From: Mobula hypostoma
Taxonomy: Eukaryota
Direction of reading: 5' to 3'
Length of the DNA: 64,000 nucleotides
Assembly (NCBI RefSeq): GCF_963921235.1
Contig: NC_086097.1
Coordinates: 117,306,001-117,370,000, forward strand
This document shows positions 3,137 to 61,220 of this stretch, in pieces; position 1 is the first letter of the stretch, and the number at the start of each line of letters is the position of its first letter. The notes beneath the pieces are model-generated. The model made no database searches and was not told the DNA's origin. It saw only the letters and a list, made by a program, of their open reading frames with translations. Made by a program: the position numbers and the translations under genes.

Positions 3137-6100
3137 GAAGTTAGGGTTTTGATTTAAATGTTCTAGCAATGCTTTCTTTCGTGTTCGTATATAGCCTTAA
3201 GTAAAGAACAAGTCCAAATTCAGTGGCGTGTTTTCTTTTGAGATTTGGGGAAATTCATGTATCTTTTCTGTGGGTGAGCTCGTTTTGAAGAAGTGCTTCA
3301 TTACAAATCTTTGCACGAATCGGACGCAGCTCTTGTTCCTTCTCTTTGTATTGTGGTCGGTGTTCTTTGACCGTTGGGTGCTGGCAGAATAACCTATAGA
3401 CTAATGACAACAAGACTCACAAACGGATGGTTATAATAAATGGACCCAATTATTTATTGATGTGCTTTTTTTTCATCTGTCAATCAATTCTCTGGCGCGC
3501 ACGCAGTTATCTCTCCACACAGAAGCAACAAGAGTTTAGCAGTGTTTGTTCGTGTCAATATGCATTCCCCCTTGCCGCATACACAGTGACCAATGTGACT
3601 ACAGAGTGGTTGGTTGTCATCCCTTGGGTCAAAACCAAGTGAGCTTTCTTTTCGTTCGGGTTTAAATAAAACATCACAAAATGAATCAATTCTCCTTCTA
3701 TTCTGACCCAAGTTGTGGTGTACTAATGCATTTTTTTTTACGTTTAGCAGTTGATGAGAATTTGTAACCCTTTCTATCCAATACACGCGGTGGCCGAGAA
3801 CATGATTAGTGCAGAGACCAATCTAATGTAATTAAATATTAAATTTCAAAACATATCAACTGCCAAGTGTTTAATCACCCGAGTAAGAACACGCAATTAA
3901 CTGAATCATCCCCCGTCCATTAGCTAGAATGATTGGTGGCAAAGACTATCGATTTCTCGTGTCCACGCATCGAGAAGAATATACTGTTAGGTCAACTCGA
4001 CTAATGCTTTACCTGGCGGCTATTCCCTTAATCAATGCAATGCTTGCCGTGGATAAAGAGTGAGAACAACATTTGCTGCCGAATGCGCGATGCCTCGCTC
4101 GGGAATAAATCGTGCCTCATCACTATGATTTCTAAATTGAGATACACTACTCCGCTCCTTGGTCTGAATGGAAAGCGACTCATAGAGTTCAGAGTTCACT
4201 TCTATATTTTTAACGATACTGTGGTAAATTCAATACATTTCGGCTTATCCGAATCTAAGAAAATACCTAACAGATTTAGGTTTATAGTAGTTTGCAAACA
4301 AAAGGCGAGCAATAATCATTGAGTGGCAGATTTCCGTGGAGATCGAAGAGAGCCGAATTGTTTTACAGAAGGTTATATCTTGTTGTGCTATGTTAATACC
4401 TCAAGGCCGACAAACTATGGAGCACCATTTCCGTTTCCTAACATAACCTTATCGCTTCTCATCGCGGGATTGGATGTGAAGTGATTTCTCCGGTTACTGT
4501 ACTCTAATACCAGACATATTTACATGAATGAAAAAAGAACTGGGTAATTAATATGTAAATATGTGTACGCTGTACCGATTGGAGCCATTATCCAGAAAGT
4601 CACTCATATTTCGCTTTACAACTTAACACAGTCAAATATTTTTGCTTTGAAAATAGCCATATTCTATACTCCTTAAATTACTTTCCAGTATCTCAGCGTG
4701 AGACATTTCCTTGAAGTTAAAACGCACTTATATCACCAGCTGAATGTTAAAATGACAAACTTAACTTGATCATTTAGTATTTATCAGTTGACAGGGTGTT
4801 GCTTAACTGTTGGGAAATTATTAATCAACTCTACTAAAATGTCTTTCTTTTAATCTTCTGCTATTTGGCTATATATCTACTGCTATGTCCAACATTGAAT
4901 TATTTAGATGGGGGAGTGAGCTTTTTGGAAATGAAATATTGATGCCAAGTGTGTTTCCAGAAATAGAATTTACAAAAGTGATGAAATTAATGTATTGTTT
5001 AATTCTCCCTGGCGACTTCCATACCCACATTTGTCCAATGCTTCTTGCCTCCATTTTCCTTTTTTTTCACAATTTGGCTACAAGACTAAAATAAATGATT
5101 TAAAGCATCGATTCTTGATCTAATGCCTGTTTAAAATAAACAGCCCAGGCATTATCTCATTCAACAAGGATAGATATATGATGTTTTGGATGCCACGAAA
5201 ACACCTTAACGTTTACAACCAATCAGTATTTGAAAATAAACGCTTCCCCTGTTAGCTCAAGGAACTGATCAGTACTGCATTTCCACAATGTTCCTCCCTT
5301 TCTATTAAATTGGTCACACATATTAGATACTCATTCTGGTCGGATGAGTGGTATAGCTTCATGCGAAAGCTTGCACGTTGTACTGATTTAGGGCCATTAT
5401 TCAGAGAGTCACTATCACATTTTGCTTCAGAACTTAACACGGTCTGAAAAGAGTTATATTTCTGTGCCCCTTTAAATTGTTTTCCTGTGTATGACATTCC
5501 CCAATATAATCTGATGCATAATAATTCCCTGAGACTGATAGTTCTGGGTGGTGCGTTTATGAGTTTGAATGTATTCTAATGTGCGTGCATAGGATAAAAC
5601 TCGCTCGAATGTCAGACAGAATACACAGATGAAATCACGTTGCTGTTGTTCTGAATTTCTTAATATTAACAGGCCATTGCATCAATGTAAAACATTAATT
5701 ATGTGGCAGGGGAGATATATTTCCTGAACGATCAACCACTGATTTACATTTTGGTTACAGGTCCTGAAAATTTATACTATGAAAATAAAATGCTGGTTTA
5801 GTCCAATAATCTTGGTGGAACAGAACTTTGCATTATTGAATAATAGAGAAAACTTGCAAAATCTGCCCAAAAATTACTTTTTTTCCCAACTTATCTGAAA
5901 TATTCTGTGGACCCAGAAGAGATCTTTTAGTTCTGTGGTTATAGCTCTGATCTTCAATACACATTTCTTACCGAGTCAATCCTACATTTGAATGGTTCCC
6001 AGCAATAATGCGCTCAGTGGGGTGTCTCTCATGCAACCCGGGCCCTGGCAGTTCTTGCAGATATGCTGTTGCCAACACAGAGTTTATAACAAACAGTTCA

Positions 6101-7423: not shown

Positions 7424-8425
7424 ATCTAGAGACTGTGTGAAAATCCTAGATCAGCTGTTTATGAGATGCTCAAACCACCACATCTAACACCAACAACACT
7501 GGACAACAAAGATTTTGCTACCTGTATATTTCTGGGTGTATCTTGTGGATTCTGGCCTGCTGTTCATGAAAATCACCATGAAATTTTCTTATCACCCACC
7601 ATTTAAAACATATTAGTTATATTTGTTATTTCAATTATAATTCAAGTCAATTAAAATGTTGCCCACAATGTAAGCTGAAAAGTTTTCTATCCTGTCCAGG
7701 CATGCTTAAGGCAGGGTGGATGCTGCATGGCAGGACAGGGTTTAGAAAGGCTATGAAAGCATCAGGCACACACTGTTCTATGTATTGTGTTTACATGTAT
7801 ATCAGTTTGTGATCACGTTAATGGGCATGCTCCACACATATAGCGTACGCATTATAATAAAGTAATTGCATTTCAGGAGTATTTATGATAGCAAAATGTC
7901 TTGCCAAAGTTCCAACAGCCACTATACTTTCAGTCATATTTGTGGTGAGTATATCCTTAAATCTCAAAGATGGAGCATGACACCTCTTATTAAGAAAGCC
8001 TACGAGCTCTACTTTGGGTGTGAAATTGATGGCCAAGACAAAGCCTCGGCTACTCACATGTGTTGCACAACATGCTCTGTCGATCTGAGACCTTGGCTCA
8101 GGGTACTCGGGAGTCAATGCTGTTTGCTGTCCTGATGATATGGAGAGGGCAGAAGGATCCTGCGATAGACTGCTACTTTTCTGTCTGAACAGTGTGTCTG
8201 TGTAACGCCCTGGTTTACATTTTTACTGTTATGCTGCAGGTATTTCATTTTAGCAGTGCTGTAAGAGCAGCCTGTCCTGCTTTCAGCATGTTTAGATTTG
8301 AGCTGAGATAGGGGGCTTGATTTTCAACTCAGGAATGAGCTGTCAGCCAATCAGGGTAGTGGAATTTGGAGAAGGTTCTGGAGAACGATGGGCTGAAGGT
8401 ATTGATTGGTGGGACCTGGGAGAAA

Positions 8426-11400
8426 TGTCATAATGGGGGGGCATTGGGGGGTGGACCCAAATGCGAGGCACAGACACTGAAGTACAAGGAACAGGACTAG
8501 GTTAGTCAAGAAAGCAAGGGAAGTGAGGAGGAAAGGACGCTGGACATGACACAGGCCCTGGATGAGACAAGGATACAGGGCCTGGGCTAGGACTTGACTA
8601 GGGTAGCGGAACCAGGACATGGAACTTGGAACTAGGAGCCTGGGATTGGACTGCAAGCCAGAGACTGGACAAGGACCCCAAACCTGGGTCTTGACTTGGG
8701 TTCAGACCCCGGATTTAGGCAAAGACATGATGAGGCCTGGGTGCCTTGAGGCAAGGGCATGACAAAGCTTGAGTGCCTCGAGGTGAGGACACGACTAAGC
8801 TTGGGTGCCTCAGGGCGAGGGTACTTCGAGGCTTGGGTATGGACTCCGAGCCAGAGACTGGGCAAGGACTCAGAACCTGGGACTTGACTCGGGCTCGGAC
8901 TCCAGAACTAGGTGAGGACAAGACATGGCTACAGGACGAGGAGAGGCAACAGGACTGGATGTGAGACTCCAGGACAGGACAAAGGAACCCCAGCACAAGA
9001 TGAGGGAACCCCAGCATCGAGCTGGGTAAGGTACTCCTGGGCTGGGCAAGACACATGGACAAGACGAGAACACAAAGCCATGGCTTGGACAGGACAACGT
9101 TCTTGGATCATGGCTAGGACTGGACGAGACCCCGAAGCCTTGACTAGGTCGAGGGAGAGACAGGAATGCAGAGCCTTGGTCAAGGAAGAGACTAGGAACA
9201 TGGAACACAGAGCTGGGACCCCTCCTTGGAAACAGGACGTAGGGCCGGGACTCATATACAGAACACAGAGACAGTTCTCCACTCAAGGTAGCGTCAAATG
9301 GCTGGACCTACCTAGCGAAGGCGTGGACACAAGACAGATCCCAACACTGGGTAGCGGCTAACGGCCAGACCTACGTAGTCAAGGTGAGGACACAGAGACA
9401 GTTCAAGACAACGATAGACAGTTCTTTATCTTGCTCCGGTGATTGAACTAGACAGCGGTGCAGGCAAGGCAAGGCTTCAGACGAGGCAACAGAAGGAAGG
9501 GGAAGGGAAGGGATTCAGACAGGAGGTATGGACAGGAAGAACACAGCAGCCAGAGGCTAAATCATGAAGGTATGTATGAAGCCAACCCAAATGAGAATTA
9601 GATGCCTCAATAGAAACTGGGGAAAACTGGAAAAGCTGGAATAAGGAACCAGGACTGGACTGTGAACCACAATGTAGATTTCATGGACCGGACCATGACA
9701 GTACCCTATGTTCTATGATAGCCTCCTGGCGACACAAAAGGCTTCCCCAGACTATGAACAACACGGGCGGGTGGGAATGCATTCAACAGGAGAGAACACA
9801 GGATCGAGAGAGTTAAACGACAGTGTCTGTGTCGCTGGGTCCAAGTCAGGCTGGACTGTTCTGTCATAATGGGGGGCGTTGGGGGGTGGACCCAAATGCG
9901 AGGCACAGACATTGAAGTACAAGGAACAGGACTAGGTTAGTCAAGAAAGCAAGGGAAGTGGGGAAGAAAGGACGCTGGACATGACACAGGCCCTGGACGA
10001 GACAAGGATACAGAGCCTGGGCTAGGACTTGACTAGAATAGTGGAACCAGGACATGGGACTTGGAAGTAGGAACCTGGACTTAGACTCCGAGCCAGAGAA
10101 TGGACAAGGACCCAAAACCCGTGTCTTGACTCGGGCTCGGACCCCAGAACTTGGCGAAGGCATGATGAGGCTTGAGTGCCTCAGGGCGAGGGTACTTCGA
10201 GGCTTGGGTATGGACCCCGAGCCAGAGACTGAGCAAGGACCCAGAACCTGGGACTTGACTCGAGCTCAGACTCCAGAACTAGGCGAGGACAAGACGTGGC
10301 TACAAGACGAGGAGAGGCAACAGGACTGGACATGAGACTCCTGGACAGGACAAAGGAACCCCAGCACTGGGCTGAACAAGGTGCTCCTGGACTGGGTGAG
10401 ACACATGGACAGGACAAGAACACAAAGCCATGGCTTGGACAGGACAAGGTTCTTGGATCATGGCTAGGACTGGACGAGACCCTGAAGCCTTGACTAGGTC
10501 GAGGAAGAGACAGGAATGCAGAACCTTGGTCAAGGAAGAGACAGGAACATGGAACACAGAGCCAGGACCCCTCCTTGGAAACAGGACGTAGGGCTGGGAC
10601 TCATACACAGAACACAGAGACAGTTCTCCACTCAAGGTAGCGGCAAACGGCCGGACATAACTAGCGAAGGTGTGGAATAAAATGGTTCCCTACACTAGGT
10701 AGCGGCAAATGGCTGGACCTACCTTGCAAAAGCGTGAACACAAGACAGATCCCAACACTAGGTAGTGGTAAATGGCCAGACCTACCTAGTGAAGGCATGG
10801 ACACAGAGACAGTTCAAAACAACAATAGACAGTTCCTTATCTTGCTCCGGCGATTGAACTAGACAGTGGTGCAGGCGAGGTTTACAGGCGAGGCAATGAA
10901 ACAGAAGGAAGGGGAAGGGAAGGGATTTGGACAGGAACACTCCAGCATCCAGATGCTGAATCCTGAAGGTATTTATGAAGCCAGCCCAAACGAGAATTAG
11001 CTGCCTCAACAGAAACTGGGAAAAAAACAGAAAACCTGGAATAAGGAACATGGACCAGACCGTGAACCGGAATGCGGATTTCTTGGACCGGACCATGATA
11101 GTATACCCTGCTCTATGGAGGCCTCCTGGCGACCCAAAAGGCTTCCCCAGACTATGGACAACATGGGCGGCTGGGGGGTGGTGCATTCAACAGGAGAGAA
11201 CCCAGGAAAGTGATAGTTAAGTGACAGTGTCTGTGTCACTGGGTCGAAGTCTGGCTGGACTGTTCTGTCATAATGGGGGGCGTTGGGGGGTGGACCCAAA
11301 TGCGAGGCACAGACATTGAAGTACAAGGACCAGGACTAGGTGTGTCAAGAAAGCAAGGGAAGTGGGGAAGAAAGGACGCTGGACATGACACAGGCCCTGG

Positions 11401-12569
11401 ACGAGACAAGGATACAGAGCCTGGGCTAGGGCTTGACTCGGATAGCAGAACCAGGACACGGAACTTGGAAGTAGGAGCCTGGGCTTGGACTCTGAGCCAG
11501 AGACTGGACAAGGACCCGCAACCTGGGTCTTGACTCAGGCTCGGACCCCGGATCTAGGCGAAGACATGACAAGGTTTGGGTGCCTCGTGGCAAGGACATG
11601 ACAAAGCTTGGGTGCCTCAAAGCGAGGACACGACAGGGCTTGGGTGCCTCAAAGCGAGGACACGACTGGGCTTGGGTGCCTCAAAGCGAGGGTACTTCGA
11701 GGCTTAGGTAGGACTCCGTGCCAGAGACTGAGCAAGGACCCAGAACCTGAGACTTGACTTGGGCTCGGACTCCAGAACTAGGCGAGGACAAGATGTGGCT
11801 ACAGGACGAGGAGGGGCAACAGGAGTAGATGTGAGACTCCTGGACAGGACAAGGGAACCCCAGCACCAGGCTGGGCAAGGTACGCTGGGCTGGGCGAGAC
11901 ATATGGACAAGACGAGAACACAAAGCCATGGCTTGGATAGGACAAGGTTCTTGGATCATAGCTAGGACTGGATGAGACCCCGAAGCCTTGACTAGGTTGA
12001 CTGAGAGACAGGAACGTACAGCCTTGGTCAAGGGAGAGACAGGAACATGGAACACAGAGCTGGGATGCCTCCTTGGAAACAGGACATAGGACAGGTCTCA
12101 TATACAGAACACAGAGACAGTTCTCCACTCAAGGTAGCGGCAAACAGCCAGATCTACCTCGCAAAGGCGTGGACACAAGACAGATCCCAACACTGGCTAG
12201 CGGCAAACAGCCAGACCTACGTAGTGATGGCATAGACACAGAGACAGTTCAAAACAATGATAGACAGTTCCTTATCTTGCACCAGCGATTGAACTAGACA
12301 GCAGTGCAGGTGAGGGTTACAGGCGAGGCAAGGCTGCAGACGAGGCAAGGTGACAGAAGGAAGAGGAGGGAAAGGGAAGGGATTCAAACGGGAGATATGG
12401 ACAGGAACAGTCCAGCAGCCAGAGGCTGAATCATGAAGGTATTTATGAAGCCAGACCAAATGAGAATCAGGTGCCTCAACGGAAACTGGGGAAAACCAGA
12501 AAAGCTGGAATAAGGAAAATGGACCGGACCATGAACCAGAATGCGGATTTCACGGACAGGACCATGACA
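8426..12569 (-). mobile_element. Non-coding triple-LTR retroelement (LTR-spacer-LTR-spacer-LTR), Tf1/sushi-like
   Basis: Three homologous TGTCAT...ATGA(C/T)A units (8426-9700, 9862-11100, 11266-12569) and two homologous spacers (9701-9861, 11101-11265). 5-bp flanks AGAAA / AGAAG. The host LTR text resumes after 12574. Confidence 0.9.
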
Positions 12570-13147
12570 AGAAGAATGGGAAAAGATGGCTGAGGATGCC
12601 ATCTCTGTTGCACAAGATGATTTGTTCAAATAAATGGCTTCAAGAAGTGAGACTCCATACTCCCGTAGGAGACCTGTATGTTCGAGATGGATTTCAAGTG
12701 ACATTTGGAAGGTGGTGTGTGCTTTCATGCAGACAGAGGGTCCAGCACATGAGTGACAGTCAAGTTCAAGATGAGCTCCAATTTAAGTGCACATTTGAAT
12801 CTTAGATTAATTGGCCCTTTTGTGTTTTTACTTTCTTTCTTTACATCACTGTTTGCTTGAACTAACATTCTTAACTATACTTCTTTATAATTGTATGCAG
12901 TTTACAATCTGTTATTTCTTACCATGGGCAGTAACTCACACAGCATTCACCCAAACCGGGGTTTGGGTGGGTGAGACATCTCAGCTTCATGGGTTTGGTA
13001 GGACTAAAGCTGTATACACCTTCAATGTATACTAGATGTACAAAGCCAAAGAAAAGCGGGTTTATTGCCACGGAATCCAGTGGCTGTTAGGCAAGAGGCT
13101 AACAAGCCTGTTTTTCAGAGATGCCCAGTATAAGGGGATTTCATTTG

Positions 13148-13165
13148 TGGGGGCTTATCCGGGAT
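13148..13165 (+). promoter_or_regulatory. tRNA-Pro primer binding site
   Basis: TGGGGGCTTATCCGGGAT, 16/18 match to the canonical tRNA-Pro PBS TGGGGGCTCGTCCGGGAT, 4 nt after the 5' LTR's terminal CA. Confidence 0.88.
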
Positions 13166-13267
13166 TGAGTTTGCTGGATGCCGTGTGATAGCCCTGAGCA
13201 TTGATCAAGCGGGTGTGTTTAACCCTGTGTTAAACTATTGTCCGGGAAAGTGATTAAGGTAATGGTT

Positions 13268-15050
13268 GTGGACACTGCAGAGATTGAGTGTTGGTGTGAT
13301 TCAGAAAGATTACTTGTAGCTAATGCTTGTATTTTGAGCTGAGCGGATATCTGCACCTCAGATGAATTGTTGCCTAGGATTTTAAGTACTGTTACAGCAT
13401 TAGAAAAAGTTATGATCATGGAACGCCAGTTTTGCAAAATGGCAGGCAAAAACTTTGCTTTAGTTCAGACTAGCACTAACATAAGGGCAGTAGATCTGTC
13501 TTGTATCATTGGAGCACCCGGAGACAGAGGGCCATGGACCATCCGTACTTTCAGAGAAGGGGGGAAGTGTAGGTGAGGGTGCTGAGTTGAATGTCAAGTT
13601 TCCCGTAGTTGACGATGGTGGAAAAATATGAGACTTGGGCTGGGCAAACCTCTTAGTTACTGGATGATTGGCAGTGCTCAGATAATATGAAAAAAACAAA
13701 GACTGGCAGAGAGCTTAAAGGGGCCGGCAGCTGATATAGTGAGATTCGTCAAGGCATAAAATCCATTTGCCATGTCAACTAATTATCTGCAAGTTCTGGA
13801 AGATGCATTTGGCACTGCTGGAAGTGCAGCCGAACTTAGGATGAAGTTTGGGAACACATTCCTGGAGGAAGGAGGGAAGCTGTCTGCCTACGTTTCCATG
13901 TTGGAGAAGCTGCTGCACTGTTTGTGCCACAAAGGGGGAAATTCAACTGTCTGAGAGAAACTGCTTGTGGGTGGAGCAAGTTGTGAAGGGCACACTGTCA
14001 CATGAGATGGTTGCTCTATGTATTTGAATGACCCACAAGATGTGCCCTCCTCCACCTTTTACTGACTTACTCAGAGAAGTTAGAGAGGAGGAACACGTGA
14101 TGGAGGAGCAGGAGGCCTCCGTTAGCATGATACAGTCTTTGGTAGTGGCCTCTGTTGCTTAAGTTACCCCTGATGTTCCACAAGGGTTGGGTTTGTGGCA
14201 GATTTGAGAGCTGAGGTATCTTGGTTAATATCGGCAGGTGCTGTCACCAAGCATACCAAAGCCGATAGGGAACCAGGCCACTGATGGGACATACTAAGGG
14301 GAGGGCCGCTGCTGAACGGGTCCCTTCAGCAGAGAAGTGACTCATATTTTCTGTTACAACTGTGGAGAAGATGGTCATTTCAAGCAGGAGTGTGAAGGAC
14401 AGGGAAATCTTCGGAAAGTAAATCAACAGTAAATCAAACAGAGAAAAGGTAAAACTACAGAGGGACCCAGTAAAGGAATGGCCTGACGTTTTGGAGAGGA
14501 TACGCCCCTACCAGTGTATCAAGAGAAATACTAAAGTACAAAACACTTTACCTGGAGGTTTAGTGGGATGAAGCTCTGATGTACCTATATGGATTGAAGG
14601 TGTTTATGCTAGAGCCATATTTGACACAAGTTCTCAAGTTACATTGCTTTATGGATCCTTTTATAACTGGTATTTGATGCATTTACCATTGACGCCACTC
14701 AGTGCTCTTGAGATTTGGGGGCTTAGTACTAGTGAGTACATATACAATGGCTACTTGTTGTTGAAACTGGAGTTTTCAGAAGCAGATGTTGGAGTAACTA
14801 AGACTATTGACACAGCAGTGTTAGTTTGACCGGATCCAGTTGAAAAGGGTGGAGCTTCCATTCTTGTGGGAACAAATACTGTCGTTGTGAGAAGGCTTCT
14901 GGGAGCATGCAAGGAGAGGAGTGGAGAGAACATTTTGAACATCCTGCCCATTCACCCTCTGTTCAGAGCTGCTTCTCAGAAGAGGCAAGTTTCTCTTATG
15001 CAATACAATGAACAGAAACAAGGAACCATGTGTTACACCCAGTCTACTCC
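13268..15050 (+). pseudogene. Disabled PNMA-like gag, CCHC zinc knuckle and aspartic protease of the Gypsy element
   Basis: RLAESLKGPAADIVRFVKA, YLQVLEDAFGTAGS..KLSAYVSMLEKLL (PNMA-like capsid); CYNCGEDGHFKQEC at 14352-14393; VPIWIEGVYARAIFDTSSQV at 14581-14640. Many stops and frameshifts. Confidence 0.82.
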
Positions 15051-19229: not shown

Positions 19230-22200
19230 TACAGCAGTGCAAGAAGTACATGGAGTAAAGCCAGATCTAACATATAAAGAGGATTTGAGGAAAGAGAAGC
19301 AGAATAAAGGGTGTAAAGGTAGCAAGGTAGAAGGGCTAAAGTGCATGTACTTCAATGCAAGCAGCATCAGGAACAAAGGTGATGAACTGAGAGCTTGGAT
19401 ACATACATGGAATTATGATGTACTGGCCATTACAGAGACTTGGCTGGCACCAGGGCAGGAATGGATTCTCAATATTCCTGTTTTTTTCTCTATAATAAAA
19501 TTACTGTATTTCAATGTTACGAATTAATTAATCTGTATGAATATAGGGTAAGTAGTCTTTATATGTGACTTAGTATAATGTATTGATTTTTTTTCTTGTA
19601 CTCTGTATTCTTATATGTAAAATTAATAATAGAAGTATTGGAAAGAAAAAAATATTCCTGGATTTCAGTGCTTTAAAAGGGATGGCGGGGGGAAGGGGAG
19701 GAGTGGTGGCATTACTGGTCAGGGATACTGTTACAGCTACAGAAAGGGTGGGTAATGTAGCAATATCCTCTTTTGAGTCAGTATGGATGGAAGTCAGGAA
19801 CAGGAAGGGAGCAGTTACTCTATTGGGAGTATTCTATAGGCCCCCTGGTAGCAGCAGAGTTAGCGAGGAGAAGATTGGGAGGCAGATTTTGGAAAGGTGT
19901 AAAAATAACAGGGATGTTATCATGGGTGACTTCAACTTCCCTAATATTGATTGGCACCTGATTAGTTCCAATGGTTTAGAAGGGGCAGAGTTTGTAAAGT
20001 GTGTCCAGGACAGATTCCTGTTACAGTATGTTGACAGGCCGACTAGGGGAAATGCCATACTAGATCTAGTATTAGGTAACGAACCAGCTCAGGTCACAGA
20101 TCTCTCACTGGGTGAGCATCTGGGGGACAGTGACCACTGCTCCCTGGCCTTTAGCATTATCATGGAAAATGATAGAGTCAGAGAGGACAGGAAAACTTTT
20201 AATTGGGGAAGGGCAAATTATGAGCTATAAGGCTAAAATTTGCGGGTGTGAATTGGGATGTTTTTTTTGCAGGGAAATGTACTATGGACATGTGGTCGAT
20301 GTTTAGGGATCTCCTGCAGGATGTCAGGGATAAATTTGTCCCGGTGAGGAAGATAAAGAATGGTAGGGTGAAGGAACCATGGGTGACAAGTGAGGTGGAA
20401 AATCTAGTCAGGTGGAAGAAGGCAACATACATGAGGTTTAGGAAGCAAGGATCAGATGGGTCTATTGAGGAATACAGGGTAGCAAGAAAGGAGCTTAAGA
20501 AGGGGCTGAGGAGAGCAAGAAGGGGGCATGAGAAGGCCTTGGTGAGTAGGGTAAAAGAAAACTCCAAAGCATTCTTCAATTATGTAAAGAACAAAATGAA
20601 GACAGGAGTGAAGATAGGACCGATTAGAGATAAAGATGGGAAGATGTGCCTGGAGGCTGTGGAAATGAGTGAGGTCCTCAATGAATACTTCTCTTCGGTA
20701 TTCACCAATGAGAGGGAATTTGATGATGGTGAGGACAATATGAGTGAGGTTGATGTTCTGGAGCATGTTGATATTAAGGGTGAGGAGGTGTTGGAGTTGT
20801 TAAAATACAATAGGATGGGTAAGTCCCCAGGGTCTGACAGAACATTCCCCAGGCTGCTCCATGAGGTGAAGGAAGAGATTGCTGAGCCTCTGGCTAGGAT
20901 CTTTATGTCCTCATTGTCCACGGGAATGGTACCGGAGGATTGAAGAGAGGCGAATGTTGTCCCCTTGTTCAAAAAAGGTAGTAGGGATAGTCCAGGTAAT
21001 TAAAGACCAGTGAGCCTTATGTCTGTGGTGGGAAAGCTGTTGGAAAAGATTCTTAGAGATAGGATCTCTGGGCATTTAGAGAATCATGTTCTGATCAAGG
21101 ACAGTCAGCATGGCTTTGTGAAGGGCAGATCGTGTCTAACAATCCTGATAGAGTTCTTTGAGGAAGTGACCAGGCATATAGATGAGGGTAGTGCAGTGGA
21201 TGTTATCTACATGGATTTTAGTAAGGCATTTGACAAGGTTCCACACGGTAGTCAAAATGCATGGGATCCAGGGAAGTTTGGCCAGGTAGATTCAGAATTG
21301 TCTTGCCTGCAGAAAGCAAAGGGTCGTGGTGAAGGGACTATATTCGGATTGGAGGATTGTGACTCGGTGTCCCACAAGGATCGGTTCTGGGACCTCTACT
21401 TTTCGTGATTTTTATTAACGACCTGGATGTGGGGGTAGAAAGGTGGGTTGGCAAGTTTGAAGATGACACAAAGGTTGACAGTGTTGTGGATAGTGTAGAG
21501 GATTGTCGAAGATTGCAGAGAGACATTAATAGGATGCAGAAGTGGGCTGAGAAGAGGCAGATAGAGTTCAACCCGGAGAAGTGTGAAGTGGTACACTTTG
21601 GAAGGACAAACTCCAAGGCAGAGTACTTGGTAGTGTGGAGGAGCAGAGGTATCTGGGGGTACATGTCCACAGATCCCTGAAAGTTGCCTCACAGGTAGAT
21701 AAGGTAGTTAATAAAGCTTATGGGGTGTTAGCTTTCATAAGTCGAGGGATAGAGTCGCGAGGTAATGATGCATCTCTATAAACCTCTGGTTAGGCCACAC
21801 TTGGAGTACAGTGTCCAGTTCTGGTCACTTCACTATAGGAAGGATGTGGAAGGATTGGAAAGGGTACAGAGGAGATTTACCAGGATGCTGCCTGGATTAG
21901 AGAGTATGCATTATGATCAGAGATTAAGGGAGCTAGGGCTTTACTCTGGAGAGAAGGAGGATGAGAGGAGACATGATAGAGGTATACAAGATATTAAGAG
22001 AAATAGATAGAGTGGACAGCTAGCGGCTCTTCCCCAGAGCACCACTGCTCAATACAAGAGGACACAGCTTTAATCAGGGATGGGAAGTTCAAGGGGGATA
22101 TTAGAGGAAGGTTTTTCACTCATAGAGTGGTTGGTGCATGGAATGCACTGCCTGAGTCAGTGGTGGAGGCAGATACACTAGTGAAATTTAAGAGACTACT

Positions 22201-26196: not shown

Positions 26197-28200
26197 ACAT
26201 AGAAACATAGAAAACCTACAGCACAATACAGGCCCTTCGGCCCACAAAGTGTGCCGAACATGTCCTTACCTTTGAAATTACCTATGTTACCCATAGCCCT
26301 CTATTTTTCTAAGCTCCATGTATCCATCCACGAGTCTCTTAAAAGATCCTATCATTTCCGCCTCCACTACCACCACCGGCAGCCCATTCCATGCACTCAC
26401 CACTCTCTGCATAAAAGACTTACCCCTGACATCTCCTCTGTACCTACTTTCAACCACCTTAAAACTATGCCCTCTCGTGCTAGCCATTTCAGCCCTGGGA
26501 AGAAGCCTCTGACTATCCACATGATCAATGCCTTTCATTATCTCGTACACCTCTGTCAGGTCACCTCTCATCCTCCGTCGCTCCAAGGAGAAAAGACCAA
26601 GTTCACTCAACCTATTCTCGTAAGGCATCCTCCCCAATCCAGGCAACATCCTTGACTTATGCAGCCAAGAAAACCTGAGTGTTTAATATGCATATTAAAT
26701 ACGCATATAAAATGAGAGTCATTTGAGTCACAGAATTATAGAGCACCACAACATATAAACAGGACTTTCAGCCCATCGACTCTATGCTAAAATGTTATTC
26801 TGCCTTGTCCCATTGACTCACACCTGGAACATTGCCCTTCATACCTCTCCCATTCAAGTCCTTACCCCAATTTCTCTTAACTGTTGCAATTGAACCCATG
26901 TTCAACACATCCCCAGGAGTTTGTTCCGCAGTCACACCACCCTCTGAGTGAAGGTCTTCCTCCTTGGGTTCCCCTAAATATCTCACATTTCACCCTTAAC
27001 ATATGACAGAATGCTGGAGGAACTTAGCAGCCCAGGTTGCACCTTTGGAAAAGAGCACAGTCGACATTTCGGGCCGAGCCCCTTCATCAGGAAGGGCCTG
27101 ATGAAGGGTCTTGACCTTAAATTTCAACTGTACTCTTTTCCATAGATGCTGCCTGGCCTGCTGAGTTCCTCCAGCATTCTGTGTGTGCTGCTTGGATTTC
27201 CAGCATTTGTAGAAATTTTCTTGTCTATGACCTCTGGTTCTAGTTTTACTCAAACTCCGTGAAAAAAAAAGGACTGCTGCATTTACCCTGCTAACATCAT
27301 TCAGACTTTTGCATACCACCTTCAAAGCTCCCCTGAATCCCTGAACTCCAGGAAAAAAGTCCTAACCTATTCAACCTTTCCCTACAACTCAGGTCCTCAA
27401 GTCCCAGCAAAGTCCTTGTAAATTTTCTCTGCAGACATCTTTCCTGTTGGCAGGTGGCAAGAACTGCATACAACACTCTAAATTTGGCCCCATTGACGTC
27501 ATATCCAACTTCAACATAACATCCCAACTTTTGTGCTTAGTACTTTGATTTATGAAGGCCAAAATGCCAAAAGTCCTTTTTACAACCCTATCTACCTATG
27601 AGACCACTTTCAAAGAATTAGGGGTCTGTGGTCCCAGGTTCCTCTCTTTGATTGCACTTATCAGTACTTTCCCATTCACTGCGTAAGTCATACCCTGCTT
27701 TGCTCGCCGAAGTCAAACACATCGCATTGCCTGCATTAAATTCCATCTGCCATTTTTCAGCTGGTGCAGATCCTGCTTTACTCCAAATTTTGGTGCCATC
27801 CACAAACTTGTTGATCCAGTTTACCACATTATCGTCAAAATTATTATGATAGGCAACAAACAACAATGGACCCATGACTAATCCCTGACGCTCATTATTC
27901 ACAGGCCTCCAGAAAGAGAAGCATTCATCTACTACTCGCTGACTTCTCCTGCTAAGCCAATATTGAATCCAATTTATTACTTCATCCTGAATGCTAAGTG
28001 ACTGAACATTCTGGACCAGCCTCCCATGTGGGACTTTGTTAGAGGGCTTGCTAAGGTCCTTGTGGACAATGTCTGCTTCCTTTCCTTCATCAAATTTCCT
28101 GGTAGGCTCATCAAAAAACTTTACAAGGTTGGTTGGTTATGACCAACCATGCACAAAGACATGTTGACTATCCATAATCTGGCCCGGTCTATCCAAATAG
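26197..28200 (-). mobile_element. Two CR1 3' fragments (26197-26655 and ~26720-28200)
   Basis: (AACATAGA)n tail; LGLFSLERRRMRGDL; RT remnants (GPLLF, KFVDGTK, WQMEFNA). Confidence 0.85.
27008..27225. mobile_element. Palindromic pair of Penelope-like termini, each with a hammerhead core
   Basis: Arms ~27006-27091 and 27097-27183 around a 5-nt loop (cttcatcagg aaggg cctgatgaag); flanked by TATGAC at 27002-27007 and 27226-27231 inside a CR1 fragment. Confidence 0.8.
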
Positions 28201-38679: not shown

Positions 38680-41600
38680 AAATATAAGGCCATGAGATCA
38701 TCAGATCTAAGAGCAGAATTAGGACATTTGGCTCATCAATTCTGCTCTGCCATGTCATTGTGGCTGGTCTAATTTTCCTCACAGCCCCAATCTCTTGTCT
38801 TCTCCCCATGTTTCTTCATGTCACGACCAATCAAGAATCAATCAACCTCTGGCTTCGATGTACATAAAAACTTGACCTCCCCAGTTGCCTGTGGCAAAGA
38901 ATTCCACAGCTTCACCATTCTCTGACTAAAAAAATTCCTTCTCATCTCCATTCTAAAAGGATGCCTCTCTATTCTGAGGCTGTGTCCATGAGAAACATGC
39001 TCTCTACATCCACTCTATCAGGACTTTCACCATTTGATAGGTTTCAATGAGGTCAACCCTCATTCTTCTGCATTCTAGTGAATACAAGCCCCAAACTATC
39101 AAACACTCTTCATATGACAAACCATTCAATCCTGGGGTCATTTTCATGAACCTCCTTTGAACCCTTTCCAGTTTTGGCATATCCTTTCCAAGATAGAGGG
39201 ACCAAACCAACTCACAATACTCCAAGTGAAGTTTCAACATTACATCCTTGCTTTTATATTCTAGCCCTCTTGAAATGATTGCTAACTTTGTATTTGCCTT
39301 CCTCACCACAGACTCAACCTGTAAATTAGCTTTTAGGGTGTCCTGCACAATGACTCCCAAGTCATTTTGCACCTCAGTTTTTTTTTGTATTTTCCTCCAT
39401 TTAGAAAATAGTTGACCCTTTCATTTCTTCTACCAAAGTGCATGTCCATACACTTCCTGAGACTGTGTTCCATGTGCCACTTCTTTCCCCGTTCTCCCAA
39501 CCTGTCTAAGCCCTTCTGTTGCCCCTCCATATCCTCAAAACGACCAACCGCTACAACAGTCTTCATATCATCTGCAATGTTTACAGCAGACCCATCAATT
39601 CCATCATCCAAATCATTGACATATAACCTAAAGAGAGGCAGTCCCAACACAGACGTCTGTGGAAAATCTGTAGTCACCAGCAGCCAGTCAGAAAAGGTTC
39701 ACTTTCTTTCCGTTCTTTGCCTCCTGCCAATCAGCTACTGCTTTATCCATGTTAGAATATTTCCTGTAATACCATGGGCTCGTAGCTTTTTAAACAGCCT
39801 CATGTATGACACCTTGTCAAAGGCCTTCTGAAAATTCAAGTACAACAACATCAACTGATTCTTCTTTGCCTACCCTGCTTGTTATTTCTTCAAAGAATTC
39901 CAACAGATTTGTCAGACAAGATTTTCCTTTAAGGAAACCATGTTGACTATGGCCTATTTTGTCATGTACCTCCAAGTACCCTGAGAACTCATCCTTAATA
40001 ATTGACTCCAACATCTTCCAACCACTGAGGTTAAACTAACAGGCCAATAGTTTCTTTTCTTCTGCCTCTCTCACTTTTTGAAGAGTGGAGTGACATTTGC
40101 ATTTTTTAATCTTCCAGAGCCATTCCAGAATTAATGATTCTTGAAAGATCATTACTAATGCCTCTATGATCTCTTCAGCCATCTCTTTCAGAACTCAGGT
40201 GTGTACACCACCTGGTCCAGGTGACTTATCTACCTTCAGACCTTTTGGTTTTCCAAGAACCTTCTCTGTAGTTATGGTAAATTCACACACTTCATGACCC
40301 CTGACACCTGGAACTTCCACCATACTGTTAGGGTCTTCCACAGTGAAGACTGATGCAAAATATTTATTCAGTTCATCCACTATTACATTGTCCCCCATTA
40401 CAACCTCTCCAGCATTGTTTTCCAGTGGTCAGATGTCAACATTAGCCTTTCTTTTACATTGTATGTATCTGAAGAAACTTTTGGTATCTTCTTTAATATT
40501 ATTGGCTAGCTTACTTTCATATACCATTGTTACCTTCTTAATGACATTTTTAGTTGCCTTCTGTTGGTTTTTAAAAGCTTCCCAGTCCTTTTTTGAATAA
40601 CTTTTCCTCTTTGGATTGTTTATATCCTGTGCTGCCCGAATTGCTTCCAGAAATTCAAGCTATTGCTGCTCTGCCATCATCCCTGCCAGTGTTCGATCAC
40701 ATTATAAGACCATAAGACCATAAGATGTAGGAGCAGAAGTAGGCCATTCAGCCCATCGAGTTTACTCTGCCATTCAAACATGGGCTGATCCAATTCTTCA
40801 AGTCATCCCCACTTCCCTGCCTTCCTCCCATCCCCTTTGATGACCTGGCTCATCAAGAGCCTATCTATCTCTGCCTTAAATACACCCAATAACTTGGCCT
40901 TCACAGGCTGCTCATGGCAAAAAATTCCACAGATTTACCACCCTTTGACTAAAGTAATTTCTCCGCATCTCAGTTCTAAATGGAAGTCTTTCAATCCTGA
41001 AGTCGTGCCCTCTTGTCCTAGACTCCCCTACCATGGAAAATAACTTTGCCATATCTAATCTTTTCAGGCCTTCTATCATTCTGAATGTTTCTATGAAATC
41101 CCTTCTCATTCTCCTGAACTCCAGGGAGCACAGCCCAAGAGCTTCCAGACGTTCCTCATATGGTAATCCTTTCATTCCTGGAATCATTCCCGTGAAGCTT
41201 CTCTGAACCCTCTCCAATGTCACTATATCCTTTCTAAAATAAGGAGCCCAAAACTGCACACAATACTCTAAGTGTTGTCTCGTGAGTGCCTTATAGAGCC
41301 TCAGCATCACATCCCTGCTCTTATATTCAATACCTCTAGAAATGAATGCCAACATTGCATTCACCTTCCTCCCCACTGACTCAACCTGGAGGTTAACCTT
41401 TAGGGTATCCTGCACAAGGACTCCCATGTCCCTTTGCATCTCTGTATTTTGAATTCTCTCCCCAGCTAAATAATAGTCTGCCCATTTATTTCTACCACCA
41501 AAGTGCATGACCATACATTTTCCAACGTTGTATTTCAGTTGCTCCTTCTTTACCCATTTCCCTAAACTATCTATGTCTCTCTGCAGACTTTCTGTTTCCT

Positions 41601-44600
41601 CAACACTACCCACTCTTCCACCTATCTTTGTATCTTTGGCAAATTTAGCCACAAATCCATTAATACCATAGTCCAAATTATTGATATACATCATAAAAAG
41701 CAGAGGTCCCAACACCAACCCTTGTGGAACTCCACTGGTAACCAGCAGCTAGCCAGAATAGGATCCCTTTATTCCCACTCTCTGTTTTCTTCCAATTTGC
41801 CAATGCCCCACCCATGCTAGTAACTTCCCTGTAATTCCATGGGCTCTTATCTTGTTTAGAAGCCTCATGTGCGGCACCTTGTCAAAGGCCTTCTGAAAAT
41901 CCAAGTACATCACATCTACTACATCTCCTTTGTCTATGCTGCTTGTAATTTCTTCAAAAATTGCAGTAGGTTTGTCAGGCAGGATTTTCCTTTCAGGAAA
42001 CCATGCTGACTTTGGCCTATCTTGTCATGTGCCTCCAGGCACTCCATAATCTCATTCCAACAATTGATTCCAACAACTTCCCAACCACTGATGTCAGGCT
42101 AACAGGACTACAGTTTCCTTTCTGCTGCCTCCCACCCTTCTTAAATAGTGGAGTAACATTTGCAATTTTCCAGTCATCTGGTACAATGCCAGCATCTATT
42201 GATTCTTGAAAGATCATTGTTAATGCCTCCACAACCTCTCCAGCTCCATCCTTCAGAATCCAAGTGTGCATTCCATGAGGTCCAGGAGATTTATCCACCC
42301 TCAGACCATTAAGCTTCTTGAGCACCTTCTTAGTCATAATTTTCACTGCACATACTTCACTTCTCTGACACTGTTGAATATCCGGTATACTGCAAATGTC
42401 TTCCACTGTGAAGACAGATGCAAAATACGCATTCAGTTCTTCTGCCATCTTTGTGTCTCTCATTACATTATCTCCAACGTCATTTTCTATTGGTCCTATA
42501 TCTACCCGCGACTCTATTTTACCCTTTATATACTTAAAAAAGCTTTTAGTATCTTCTTTGCTATTTTCACGAGCTTCCTTTCAAAATTCATCTTTTCCTT
42601 CCTAATGATTTTCTTAGTTTCCTTCAGCAAGTTTTTAAAAGCTTCCCAATCCTCTATCTTCCCACTAGCTTTGGCTTCCTTGTATGCCCTCTCTCTTGTT
42701 TTTACTTTGGCTCTCACTTCATTTGTCAGCCACGGTAGTGCCCTTCTTCCACTCGAAAATTTCTTCTTATTTGGTATAGATCTGACTTGCACTTCTCTCA
42801 TTTTTTGCAGAAACTCCAGCCATTGCTGCTCTGTTGTCCTTCCTGCTAGCGTCCCTTTCCAGCCAACTTTGGCTAGTTCCCCTCTCATACCACTGTAATT
42901 TCCTTTATTCCACTGAAATACCGACACATTGGATTTTAGTTTCTCCTTCTCAAATTTCAAAGTGAACTCGGTCATATTGTAATCACTGTTCCCTAAGGGT
43001 TCCTTAACCTTAAGCTCTCTTTTCACCTCTGGATCATTGCACAACACCCAATCCAGCACAGCTGATTCCCTAGTAGTCTCAATAACAAGCTGTTCGAAAG
43101 ACATTCTTCAAATTCTCTCTCTTGAGGTCCAGTACTAACATGTTTTCTCAATCCACTTTCATGTTAAAATCCCCAGTGATTATCATGACATTGCCCTTCT
43201 GACATGTATTTTCTATTCCCTGCTGTAATTTGTAATTCACATCCTGGTTGCTGTTTGGAGGCCTGGATACAACTGGCATTTGAGTCCTTTTACCCTTGCC
43301 ATTTCTTAACTCGCCCCCTAGAGACTCTACACCTTCCAATCTTATGTCATCTCTTTCTAATGATTTAATATTATTTCTTATACACAGGGCCACACCACCC
43401 CTTCTGCTTACTATCCTATCTTTCTAATACACTGTATATCCTTGGACGTTCAGCTCCCAATGGCAGCCATCCTTTTGCCAAGTTTCAGAGATGGCCACAA
43501 CGTCATACTTGCCAATCTGTAGCTGAATTTCAAGATTGTCCATTTTATTTCTTATGCTGTGTGCATTCAAATATAACACTTCCAGTCCATTATTTGTTGC
43601 TCTCTGTTTTAACTGTACTATCCCTGTAACTCATCCCACTGGCTGTGATTATGTCTCATCTCCTGCCTGTCCTTTCTATCATCTCTGTTGCACACTATCT
43701 TTGATTTATTACTGTTTTCCCCTTCCTCAGCCCTATCATCCCCCTGCTAAATTAGTTTAAGCCCTCCCTTACAGCGCTACTAAACCTGCCTGCTAGGATA
43801 TTGGACCCCTTTGGGTTCAGGTGTAACACATCCTTTTTGTACAGGTCATACATCCCCAGAAGAGGGCCCAGTGATCCAGAAATCTGAAGCCCTGACCCCG
43901 ACATGAGTCTCTCAGCCACACATTAATACGCCTGATCATTCTATTCTTGCACTCGCTAGCACGTGGCACAGGCAGCAATCCTGAGATTACTACCCTAGAG
44001 GTCCCTGCCTTTCAACTTCCTACCTAACTCCCTGAATTCTCTCTTCAGGATTTCCCTCCATTTTTCTACCTATGTCATTTGTACCAACGTTACCAAGACT
44101 TCTGGCTGTTCACCCTTTCCCTTCAGAACACTCTGCACCTGATCCAAGACATCCCACACCTTGGAATCTGGGAGGCAACACGCCATGTGAGTATCTCTAT
44201 CAGGCTGACAGAACCTCCTGTCTGTTCCCCTCACTGTGGAATCCCCTATGACTACCGCATTCCTCATCTTCCTCATTCCCTTCTGCACCACAGAACTAGA
44301 CTCAGTACCAGAGACCCAATCGCCATGGTCATCCTCTGTCAGGTCACCCCCTCAACATCATCCACAATGAGATAACAATTACAGAGGGGGATGGCTAAAG
44401 GGGTGTTCTCTGCTATCTTAGCTCTTCCCTTCCCTGACAATCACCCACCTATGTAACTCCTGCAGTCTCAGAGTGACTAGCTCCCAGTAGCTCCTAATTA
44501 TCTCCTGCTCACTTTCCCTAATAAGCTACAGGTCATGAAGCTGCAGCTCCAGATCCCTAACACGATCTCTCAGAAGCTGCATCTCGGTGAACCTAGCACA

Positions 44601-55625: not shown

Positions 55626-57134
55626 AATTGTGACGGCATTGGGATTGTTGACTGCAAAGTTCGAAACTCAAATGAAAACCTTAAACCTGATTGGATATAG
55701 ATACTCTCAATAAAGGGAGATTATACCACAACTACCCAATCTTCAAACTATAGTTTACTTCCCCATTTATTCTCCCTGGTGTGTTTTGCTGCCAATACCC
55801 ATTATTTGAGTGGTGGGACCCCTCCTTATGAAGGAGAAAATACTTCCAGCTAGGAAATCAGTTTAAAACACAGTTCATTTATTTTCAAAGATGCGTGTTT
55901 AAATCCAAACAACATTCTTAAACACACTTAAAATTCAGAGGATTTCTACCTTAAACATTTCCAAACTACAAAATATTGTTTTAAAAACACAAAGGATTTC
56001 CAGAACACAGCCACAGTTCCTGTATACTAAAAAGCCAAATGAATGATGCAGATGAACAAATCATTTGTCACAGAAATCAAAGCCAGAGGAATGGATTCTA
56101 GTTCACTCCATGTTTCTTTCGTGGTTTCTTGGTGTTTCTTATCCAATTCCCAATAACACTGAAATGCTCTCTACGTTTATACTCTTTTTCTGCCACTTGG
56201 GTGATTCACACGTATATGTTATTTCCTCAGGTACCCTTTTTACACAAAATGTCTGAAAGCTTTTTGGAACCACAATTTCAAGCCACCTATAATTAAGGCT
56301 GCAAGCTAACTTCTCTGAGTACCTAAACCTTCCAATTATAAGCACATCAGATATTTGATATGCAAAATGATATTATCCATCTGGTCTGCAAGCTTCCTTG
56401 AACTAAACAACTTAGTCAGCTTGTCTTGTTTGAAATAACCCATTGTATAATACTGCATCTCTTTGAGCAGCAATAAACCGGGTGCATTGACCAATATCCT
56501 ACTTCTACAGACAGTGTTTTACTATCTACAGAGCTTGTTTGCAAAGCTACTTGATAATTAGCACTTTGTTTTAACTTCAAACTGATTACTACTTGCTATT
56601 TACATTATTAAGAACTGAAGACTGGTTCCCATTTATGTCCAGAAGCTAAACAGCTGTTTTATCTTGACCATTAAGAAAAAATGCAATAAAACAGCTGTCT
56701 ACTGGGGAAGTCTTCATTTAAAAAATGCAAAGGGGCTTGGGCAGCCTTATGCAGGATACCCTAAACGTTGACTTGCAGGTTGGATCAGTGATAAGAAGGC
56801 AAATACAATGATAGCATTCATTTCAAGAGGACTAGAATATAAGAGCAAGAATGTGATGCTAAGGCTTTATAAGGCACTGGTTAGAGCACATTTTAAACAG
56901 TTTGGGGCCACTTATGTAAGAAAAGATGTGCTGACATTGGAGTGGGTCCAGAGGAGGTTCAGGAGAATGATTCCAGGAATGAAAGAGTTCATGCATGAAC
57001 AGGGTTTGATGGCCCTGGGCTTGTACTCACTGGAGTTTAGAAGAATAAGGGGGTATCTCATTGAAATCTGTTTGGCGAGGTAAGTGGGTGAGTAGACTTA
57101 TGTTTCCTGTTTCATTCGTGCAAAATTAGATAGC

Positions 57135-58097: not shown

Positions 58098-58235
58098 TTT
58101 GGCAGGGGGATGGGAACTGGAATGATAGAGCGGAGGAAGGGGAAAACAGAAATAAATCTAAGATTGTGAGCAGTAAAGATATCAGGAAAGACAGGCAGGT
58201 GATGGGGCAAACGTGTAGCCATGGGATGAGTTGCA

Positions 58236-61061: not shown

Positions 61062-61220
61062 ATAGGATAAAATGGATCAGCTCATGATAAAATGGTGGAG
61101 CAGACTCGATGGGCCGAATGGCCTTCTTCTGCTCCTTTGTCTTATGGTCTTATGGTCTTATGGAAATCTCTTGAATATTGAAAGGCCTAGATAGACAGAC
61201 TGTGCAAAAGATATTTCCTA

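Follow-up and report, generated by a model that had tools for sequence, protein, structure and literature searches.

The question raised by this locus is how a retrotransposon with long terminal repeats (LTRs), devoid of genes and of a tRNA-type primer-binding site (PBS), could have primed its reverse transcription. The element lies in a stretch of 64,000 nucleotides from Mobula hypostoma (NCBI RefSeq assembly GCF_963921235.1, contig NC_086097.1, positions 117,306,001 to 117,370,000 of the forward strand), which is hereafter called the window. A script applied to the window shows one insertion that runs on the minus strand from 12569 to 8426 in the order LTR-spacer-LTR-spacer-LTR. From the sequence comparisons presented here, we give a probability of about 0.8 to the conclusion that this lineage primed reverse transcription from the 5′ end of its own RNA, without a host tRNA.

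The 12 nt directly 3′ of the LTR ends are the same in both spacers. In spacer A (165 nt, 11101..11265) the PBS occupies 11265->11254, 0 nt after the terminal CA of the preceding LTR, and in spacer B (161 nt, 9701..9861) it occupies 9861->9850; both read GAACAGTCCAGC. In LTR3, the 5′-most repeat (1304 nt, 11266..12569), the minus-strand segment 12416->12405 reads GCTGGACTGTTC, which is the exact reverse complement of GAACAGTCCAGC at 12 of 12 positions. This 12-mer begins 31 nt after the first base of the TATA-like box CATAAATA (12447->12440), a box that is kept in family copies, and it would form the first 12 nt of the predicted transcript and thus the putative self-primer. The middle repeat, LTR2 (1239 nt, 9862..11100), has the same box at 10977->10970 and the 12-mer GCTGGAGTGTTC, with a single mismatch, at 10946->10935. 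In LTR1, the 3′-most repeat (1275 nt, 8426..9700), the two sites, of the box and the 12-mer, read CATACATA and GCTGTGTTCTTC, and both are decayed. An earlier analysis of the window (the sequence-only reading) had described this arrangement, including the lack of TGG directly after the LTR, the same geometry with one mismatch in LTR2, and the decay of LTR1. All of these features were recovered by script, and the coordinates and strings were correct at every position.

A compositionally biased, motif-rich LTR might contain such a complement by chance, and this LTR is indeed rich in C and T (A 15%) with many words resembling CTGTCC or GTCCAG. However, the exact 12-mer appeared anywhere in LTR3 in only 2 of 20000 dinucleotide shuffles (a match of at least 11 of 12 in 106 of 20000), and it lies at a fixed distance from the box. 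When at most one mismatch is allowed, the 12-mer pattern occurs four times on the two strands of the 64 kb, each time inside the element; the expectation from 100 shuffles is 0.27, and none of the 100 reached four. The match also recurs in other copies and, in other lineages, is altered together with the PBS, as described below. A chance complement is contradicted by the LTR3 shuffles together with the co-variation count for 28 copies, and we regard it as extremely improbable.

Other members of the family were collected from the 3.48-Gb genome assembly. A query composed of the LTR and the spacer gave 8701 first-look candidates, 40 of which were scored to yield 113 matches, and a query with the spacer alone gave 515 candidates, with matches for 40 of the 40 that were scored. 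Most of the LTR matches are solo LTRs that end in ..TGACA and are followed by unrelated flanks. The 60 loci that were fetched contained 32 distinct junctions between an LTR end and a PBS, 2 of them in the window. The PBS reads GAACAGTCCAGC at 15 of the 32 junctions, GAACAGTCCAGT at 6, and GAACAATCCAGC at 3; C is found at position 7 in a further 6 (GAACAGCCCAGC and three one-off variants), and the other 2 are single variants. One short spacer type is flanked by several LTR subfamilies that cannot be aligned with one another between the box and the 12-mer or past the 12-mer. Across these diverged subfamilies, the box, the gap of 22-23 nt from box to site, and the 12-mer GCTGGA(C/T)TGTTC persist.

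For 23 of the 32 junctions, one or more of the adjoining LTRs had a site that could be scored, which gave 35 site/PBS pairs. Over the 12 nt, there are 12 Watson-Crick pairs in 7 of the 35, 11 with one G.U pair in 12, 11 with one mismatch in 4, and 10 with one G.U pair and one mismatch in 9, while pairing is worse in 3; at least 10 Watson-Crick pairs are formed in 33 of the 35. Since the copies are old, some decay of a once perfect duplex is to be expected. The six junctions with C at position 7 make up a subfamily of their own, located at L034, L038, L043 (two junctions), L053, and L056, where the LTR site reads GCTGGACTGTCCTGTTC and a longer, interrupted duplex that reaches into the LTR end can be formed.

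Relatives with a gag gene were sought with the Pfam domain DUF4939, which represents gag of the sushi/RTL type; the genome search gave 2121 first-look candidates, and 150 of the 150 scored were over the cutoff. The upstream side of 26 DUF4939 matches and one whole element were sampled, for a total of 27 loci. The LTR end (..ACA) is followed directly by a 13-nt PBS-like string in 20 of the 27, and in those loci the gag start, ATGGA(C/T)CC(A)GC(G)GAC (M-D-P-A-D..), is found 3-4 bases past this string. No PBS or gag start was recognized in the stretch fetched for the remaining 7, and these were excluded from the counts. The 18 gag-bearing copies that were read at the site each have a match to their own PBS in their own LTR.

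Four types of site and PBS can be distinguished. In type A (L063, L064, and L085; decayed in L071, L078, L081, and L062), the LTR site is GCCAGATCGTT and the PBS is AACGATCTGGC. Type B (L070, L080, L083, L061, L088, L065, L069, and L086; decayed in L076) combines the site GCCAGTTCGT with the PBS ACGAACTGGC, and type D combines GCCAGATTGT with ACAATCTGGC (L077 and L084, as well as L066 with a partly deleted PBS and L082 with a different site). The window element and its family copies constitute type C, with GCTGGACTGTTC and GAACAGTCCAGC. Types A and C differ at 4 positions of the PBS and, in the LTR site, at the 4 positions complementary to these. A single compensated A/T swap distinguishes type B from type A, and a single compensated change, at a CpG, distinguishes type D from type A. 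Pairing across types is poor: by hand count, site C agrees with the complement of the A-PBS at 8 of 12 positions, and site A agrees with the complement of the C-PBS at 7 of 12.

Among the 15 relatives that were found by regular expression, a TATA-like box precedes the site by 28-32 nt in 9 and by 22 nt in 1, and none was called in 5. The variants of the box are TATAAG, CATAAG, GATAAAG, and CATTTAAA, and a TATTT-like box is located ~32 nt before the site in the copies of type D (hand count). Exact complementary runs of 10-11 nt are present in 6 of these 15 relatives, and each run was equaled by at most 6 of 1000 shuffled PBS sequences (P ≤ 0.006). In three further relatives, 8 Watson-Crick pairs are lengthened to 11 by G.U pairs.

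For a formal count, 14 family C copies (2 from the window) and 14 gag-bearing copies were aligned with their ends in register. The decayed copies L076, L078, L081, L082, and L062 were left out of the alignments, as were L066 and the position-7-C subfamily. For the 12 proposed pairs in 28 copies, 91.4% of the 336 cells are paired, versus 13.7-38.7% after displacement of the 3′ partner by 1-3 columns, and changes on both sides are found in 7 of the 12 pairs (49 cells). The percent paired, the number of both-sided cells, and the covariation score were each reached by 0 of 500 shuffles. The 14 gag-bearing copies alone are 92.9% paired with 3 both-sided pairs, and the same three measures were again reached by 0 of 500 shuffles. 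The sequence-only reading had suggested that compensatory changes between the PBS and the predicted transcript start be sought in a family consensus. Such co-variation was found between lineages, copy by copy rather than by consensus. The pairing, whose absence from the family consensus that reading had named as an argument against it, is instead kept across copies and subfamilies. The compensation between lineages is independent of copy selection. At least four related ray lineages have primer and PBS sequences that differ and yet are complementary, which provides comparative evidence of selection on this pairing in a vertebrate.

The boundaries of the insertion bear on whether it is a retrotransposon at all. 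The locus contains three direct copies spaced 1404-1435 nt apart and could be viewed as a 1.4-kb tandem satellite in which "LTR" and "PBS" are mislabels. However, all three copies open with TGTCATGG and close with TATGACA (TG..CA termini), and the outer borders of the array coincide exactly with the start of an LTR on one side and the end of an LTR on the other. The array is flanked by CTTCT on the 5′ side (12570..12574) and by TTTCT adjoining the end of LTR1 (8421..8425), a 5-bp target-site duplication that is preserved at 4 of 5 positions. These boundaries identify an LTR element rather than a satellite. In addition, dispersed solo copies share the same end bases, copies with two LTRs exist, and the spacer is homologous to the ends of a gag-pol element. 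The satellite interpretation is contradicted by the solo copies, the array ends and flanks, and the spacer homology, and it is about as implausible as a chance complement.

The insertion is best described as an LTR element in which the aligned parts of LTR3 show 84-90% identity to LTR2 and LTR1 and in which spacers A and B have a mean column identity of 92% over the aligned junction stretch. Tandem LTR-spacer-LTR-spacer-LTR arrays are frequent in the family, rather than simple copies with two LTRs. In addition to 8426-12569 of the window, examples were found at L032 (C2:218.40 Mb), L048 (C9:162.74 Mb), L026 (C55:57.59 Mb), and L043 (C52:47.67 Mb) and among matches at C12:113.27 Mb. Within LTR3, the predicted U3 is short (153 nt, 12417..12569, as delimited by the box and the position of the 12-mer), and the predicted R-U5 would be 1151 nt if the transcript begins at 12416. 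The sequence-only reading had estimated a U3 of ~150 nt and a loop of ~1.14 kb, in good agreement with the 153 nt and ~1.15 kb obtained here for that start. The long U5 of LTR3 contains 4.2 copies of a 32-nt tandem repeat (11558..11691). Likewise within the long U5, three copies of a 32-nt unit are found at 8717-8811 and 3.2 copies of a 63-nt unit at 10612-10815, and differences in the copy number of such repeats account for the different lengths of the three LTRs. In the copy L036, the 32-nt unit is repeated over a much longer stretch.

The spacers have no coding capacity, with stops in all three sense frames, and their origin is indicated by alignment with the gag-bearing copies. The alignment includes the U5 end (GCAYTTGGGTCC) and extends over the terminal ACA and the PBS to the gag start, each of which is recognizable in the window element. 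The relic of the gag start in spacer A is TTCGACCCAGTGACACAGACAC (11227..11248), in which the gag ATG is mutated to TTCG; other copies and the relatives read ATGGACCCAGCG(G)ACAC there. At the other end of the spacer, a relic of the pol C-terminus and a polypurine-like tract (11101..11160) abut the start of LTR2. Frame 1 (0-based) reads ..GKPFGSPGGLHRAGY, which is the counterpart of ..EMPVGAGVGYC at the end of the pol of L088, where a G-run and the LTR follow. The tract before the LTR in family copies is GGGGG..TAC, followed by the LTR start TG. The PBS and the G-rich tract of an LTR element are both present in the window, although its tract is weaker (GAGCAGGGTATAC). On the basis of these alignments, the spacer is the remnant of a gag-pol element that lost nearly everything between the first gag codons and the last pol codons. 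The earlier description of the element as protein-free is borne out by the stops in every sense frame; the accompanying statement that only the self-priming machinery was kept is slightly too narrow, since the G-rich tract and the gag and pol relics remain.

The representative of the gag-pol group that was examined as a whole element is L088 (C9:97604300-97610800), a decayed full-length relative with a perfect target-site duplication (GTGGC) and LTRs of ~500 nt that are 86% identical. Its domains are DUF4939/Ty3_capsid gag, RVT_1, RT_RNaseH_2, Integrase_H2C2, rve, and SH3_Tf2-1, and a second copy (L061/L087) has a zinc knuckle and an aspartic protease in addition to gag and the beginning of the reverse transcriptase (RT). 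The order of RT, RNase H, and integrase with a Ty3/gypsy-type gag is found in these relatives, and the window element has no open reading frame. When the RT of L088 was used as a query, 7883 proteins were found at E ≤ 1e-20 among 8000 candidates. The 120 matches listed include many fish pol proteins, one of them from Takifugu, with 70-75% RT identity to L088 and with protease, RT, RNase H, integrase, SH3_Tf2-1, and chromodomain (PF00385) regions. No chromodomain was detected in the decayed L088 at E ≤ 0.01. Some of these listed matches carry the source names Transposon Tf2-6/Tf2-9 polyprotein or Gypsy retrotransposon integrase-like protein 1, and another takes its name from transposon 17.6. 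Judged by homology and source names, the lineage is a vertebrate chromovirus of a sort that is generally assigned to the Tf1/sushi group. The noncoding homology of the spacer in turn makes the window element an ancient, internally deleted, nonautonomous descendant of a sushi-type chromovirus (Ty3/gypsy). For the vertebrate Tf1/sushi group, including sushi-ichi of pufferfish, PMC6317226 and PMC4600332 cite Butler et al. 2001, J Mol Evol 52:260.

Two features of the relatives were recorded in passing. In L088 (oriented positions 3304-3842), a 60-bp unit is repeated ~9 times with 93-99% identity in an open pol frame between RT and RNase H. The LTRs that precede the gag of L063 (~2150-2258, oriented) and L064 (~2250-2326) have purine-rich sequence resembling a polypurine tract upstream of them, and these copies may also lie in tandem arrays.

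The alignment with the gag start is also relevant to conventional tRNA priming. Most family copies carry TGGACCCAGCGACAC shortly after the LTR, and a tRNA might be supposed to act at the TGG that most copies have 17-19 nt past the LTR (..ATGGACCCAGCG..). However, in the gag-bearing relatives this stretch is the gag start with the first codons (ATG GAC CCA GCG), and at the corresponding place spacer A of the window reads TTCGACCC, without TGG. The TGG lies at too great a distance from the LTR end to be a typical PBS, and the stretch, read as a tRNA 3′ end, would put T where tRNAs keep C61. Priming at this TGG would also leave unexplained why the first 12 nt co-vary with the LTR, and we consider it very improbable.

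The PBS itself was compared with host tRNAs, as the sequence-only reading had suggested. From a genome search for tRNAs (Rfam), 63 of ~248000 candidates were scored, and 19 short stretches and one 10-kb stretch were fetched; the types contained in them are Lys(TTT), Cys(GCA), and Thr(CGT) only. Their longest complement to the PBS region is 6 nt, a result that agrees with the absence of a tRNA match for these three types rather than for the whole tRNA repertoire. The window has no tRNA gene, and there was no Rfam match above E 0.44 in 7500-13500. The 10-kb stretch (L089, 4109500-4119499) belongs to a dense cluster of dozens of near-identical tRNA genes at ~4.02-4.33 Mb of contig C90, and 5 of the 5 tRNA genes in it are tRNA-Lys(TTT).

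A precedent for priming from the RNA 5′ end is available in Tf1, for which it is described that the RNA's first 11 bases pair with the PBS and that RNase H cuts between bases 11 and 12 (PMC7175516). Self-priming has been attributed to Tf1/sushi elements of yeast and vertebrates, and it has been proposed for Tj1 as well as, on the basis of sequence, for elements of hosts that range from fungi to vertebrates (PMC6317226, PMC4600332). In the portions of these sources that treat the subject, the demonstrations are confined to fission-yeast elements, and the vertebrate case rests on sequence inspection.

The structure of the insertion and the complementarity are observed, as are the persistence of the pairing in other copies, its coupled changes between related lineages, and the derivation of the spacer from a gag-pol element; from these we infer the following course of events for the time when the family was active. 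RNA polymerase II would start ~31 nt downstream of the first base of the CATAAATA box. The initial 11-12 nt of the transcript would then fold back over ~1.15 kb of R-U5 and pair with the PBS directly after the LTR. The RNase H of the RT of a related element, acting in trans, would cut the RNA behind the duplex, and the short 5′ piece would prime the synthesis of minus-strand DNA, so that no tRNA would be needed. Self-priming is the most likely mechanism because a PBS only 0-1 nt past the LTR end, a duplex of 10-12 bp, and a partner at the position where a TATA-directed start is expected all have their counterpart in Tf1. Since the element has no proteins of its own, the RT/RNase H and the integrase would have been supplied by a relative, and, with the primer carried in cis, no match to the primer sequence of the helper itself would be needed.

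Co-variation proves pairing and not priming, and the contact between the 5′ end and the PBS might have been selected as a long-range RNA interaction for packaging, dimerization, or the control of translation or reverse transcription, with something else, such as a tRNA fragment, serving as the primer. The two mismatches tolerated by one subfamily and the frequent G.U pairs would be in keeping with this alternative. However, in all four lineages the 3′ partner is located at the place of a PBS, 0-1 nt past the terminal CA, and a 10-12 bp duplex at the predicted RNA start matches the Tf1 case as it is described (PMC7175516). No TGG or other tRNA-type site follows the LTR, and the match with the three host tRNA types is at most 6 nt. 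A long-range contact without priming is thus an unlikely alternative to self-priming, though a more serious one than those discussed above.

The predicted duplex was also evaluated by folding. For the predicted 1182-nt RNA, which was taken from 12416 through 20 nt beyond the PBS, 12 of the 12 pairs are present in the minimum free energy structure, with a pairing probability of 0.98-1.0 for 11 of them and 0.5 for the last. The sequence-only reading had noted that the pairing extends into the LTR end, and the predicted fold accordingly has 12 bp, a one-base bulge, and 4 bp. The predicted R-U5 of the relatives is 208-428 nt, and the duplex between the 5′ end and the PBS is part of the minimum free energy structure in 4 of 11 relatives, with a probability of at least 0.7 in 5 of 11. 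Folding alone is weak evidence. No RNA run is recorded for this stretch. Contigs from three sequencing runs with the same species label, whose RNA nature is a guess, and from one DNA run were compared with 10900-12700 at 80% likeness; they were short, and no begin or end position stood out. With respect to the 3′ end of the transcript, LTR3 and LTR2 have no poly(A)-signal hexamer other than the CATAAA inside the box, and LTR1 has only GATAAA at position 271.

A number of observations weigh against self-priming as proposed here. The transcript start at 12416 is a prediction from the site 31 nt after the TATA-like box. Because the CATAAA of the box is the sole hexamer resembling a poly(A) signal, R cannot be delimited; if the box doubled as the poly(A) signal, almost no R would be left. 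In 6 of the 11 relatives that were folded, the probability of the duplex is below 0.5. Within the family, the LTR site has T at position 7 opposite G of the PBS (G.U) in 21 of the 35 scored pairs, so that the perfect 12 of 12 pairing of LTR3 is not the commonest state among the sampled copies, and the C at this position in LTR3 may be a later transition. In this small sample, no association was found within the family between G or A in the PBS and C or T in the site. The LTR site of the position-7-C subfamily, GCTGGACTGTCC, pairs at only 10 of 12 positions, with uncompensated A.C and C.A mismatches, and this two-mismatch state was probably inherited, as it is common to the six junctions. All of the copies are old: the best LTR-LTR identity within a locus is 73-86% in 27 of 30 loci, with no match in the other 3, and the pairing state at the time of insertion therefore has to be reconstructed.

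Further points of the same kind concern the counts and the relatives. In the alignment of 28 copies, the number of pairs with both-sided change was reached by 33 of 500 shuffles and the number of further pair types by 485 of 500, and in the 14 gag-bearing copies each of these two measures was reached by 171 of 500. The family C copies were picked with a motif filter and decayed copies were dropped, which biases the percent paired upward. The cells represent sequences rather than events, and the copies fall into only four lineages. A genome search for the exact pattern of the window PBS with an intact gag start gave 0 matches, and type C is carried by 0 of the 20 gag-bearing copies with a recognized PBS.

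The arrangement can be compared with several known systems. The self-primed Ty3/gypsy elements Tf1 and Tf2 of Schizosaccharomyces pombe and Tj1 of S. japonicus, for which it has been shown by experiment or proposed that a PBS adjoining the LTR complements the RNA's first ~11 bases, resemble the window element in the lack of a tRNA-type PBS and in the duplex of 10-12 bp, as far as they are described in PMC7175516 and PMC4600332. The window element, in contrast, comes from a vertebrate host, is free of genes, and is known here from sequence alone. The distance from primer to PBS is ~1.15 kb in the window element as opposed to 208-428 nt in the gag-bearing relatives. For Tf1 this distance is said to be on the order of 100-200 nt. 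The vertebrate Tf1/sushi elements are matched by the relatives, with a DUF4939 gag, RT-RNase H-integrase, and a Tf2-1-like SH3 domain, whereas the window element is noncoding with LTRs of 1.2-1.3 kb, and its membership is based on noncoding homology.

The window element also shares properties with TRIMs (terminal-repeat retrotransposons in miniature) and LARDs (large retrotransposon derivatives): it has no coding capacity, it has kept its LTRs, a PBS, and a polypurine-like tract, and it occurs in tandem arrays, which are common in TRIMs. It differs from LARDs, which have long internal domains, in that its spacer is only 161-165 nt. TRIMs are described as being less than 1 kb in total, with terminal repeats of 100-250 bp and a tRNA PBS (PMC6934838). 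The window element exceeds this size, with LTRs of 1239-1304 nt, and its PBS is complementary to its own LTR.

Self-priming in the Tf1/sushi group is already known; the new aspects of this element are a noncoding derivative that kept the signals and a span of 0.86-1.15 kb between primer and PBS. No nonautonomous self-priming LTR element from a vertebrate was found among the listed titles and abstract openings of one open-access literature search, which does not by itself establish that none has been described. A noncoding derivative of this kind can carry its own primer and would, in principle, need the proteins of a relative and not a matching host tRNA. The self-priming arrangement has survived a very long U5, and tools that seek a tRNA-type PBS miss or mislabel such elements. 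A more speculative proposal, which we find doubtful, is that self-priming in the sushi lineage is indifferent to distance and fully portable in cis, with the box perhaps serving as both the TATA element and the sole poly(A) signal. If this were true, the primer would have reached over 0.86-1.15 kb of repeat-rich U5 and the family would nevertheless have attained hundreds or thousands of copies. It would also have been mobilized by relatives whose primer and PBS differ at four positions, with an R that extends little beyond the primer.

The window also contains the remains of unrelated non-LTR retrotransposons at 57096-62104 (+), 19574-20943 (+), 40912-41748 (-), and 27618-28136 (-). One of them is an open reading frame that contains a GDSL/OSK-type esterase domain and precedes RT fragments as well as an ALKBH8_N-like match; another is a fragment of an Exo_endo_phos endonuclease, and the others are RT fragments.

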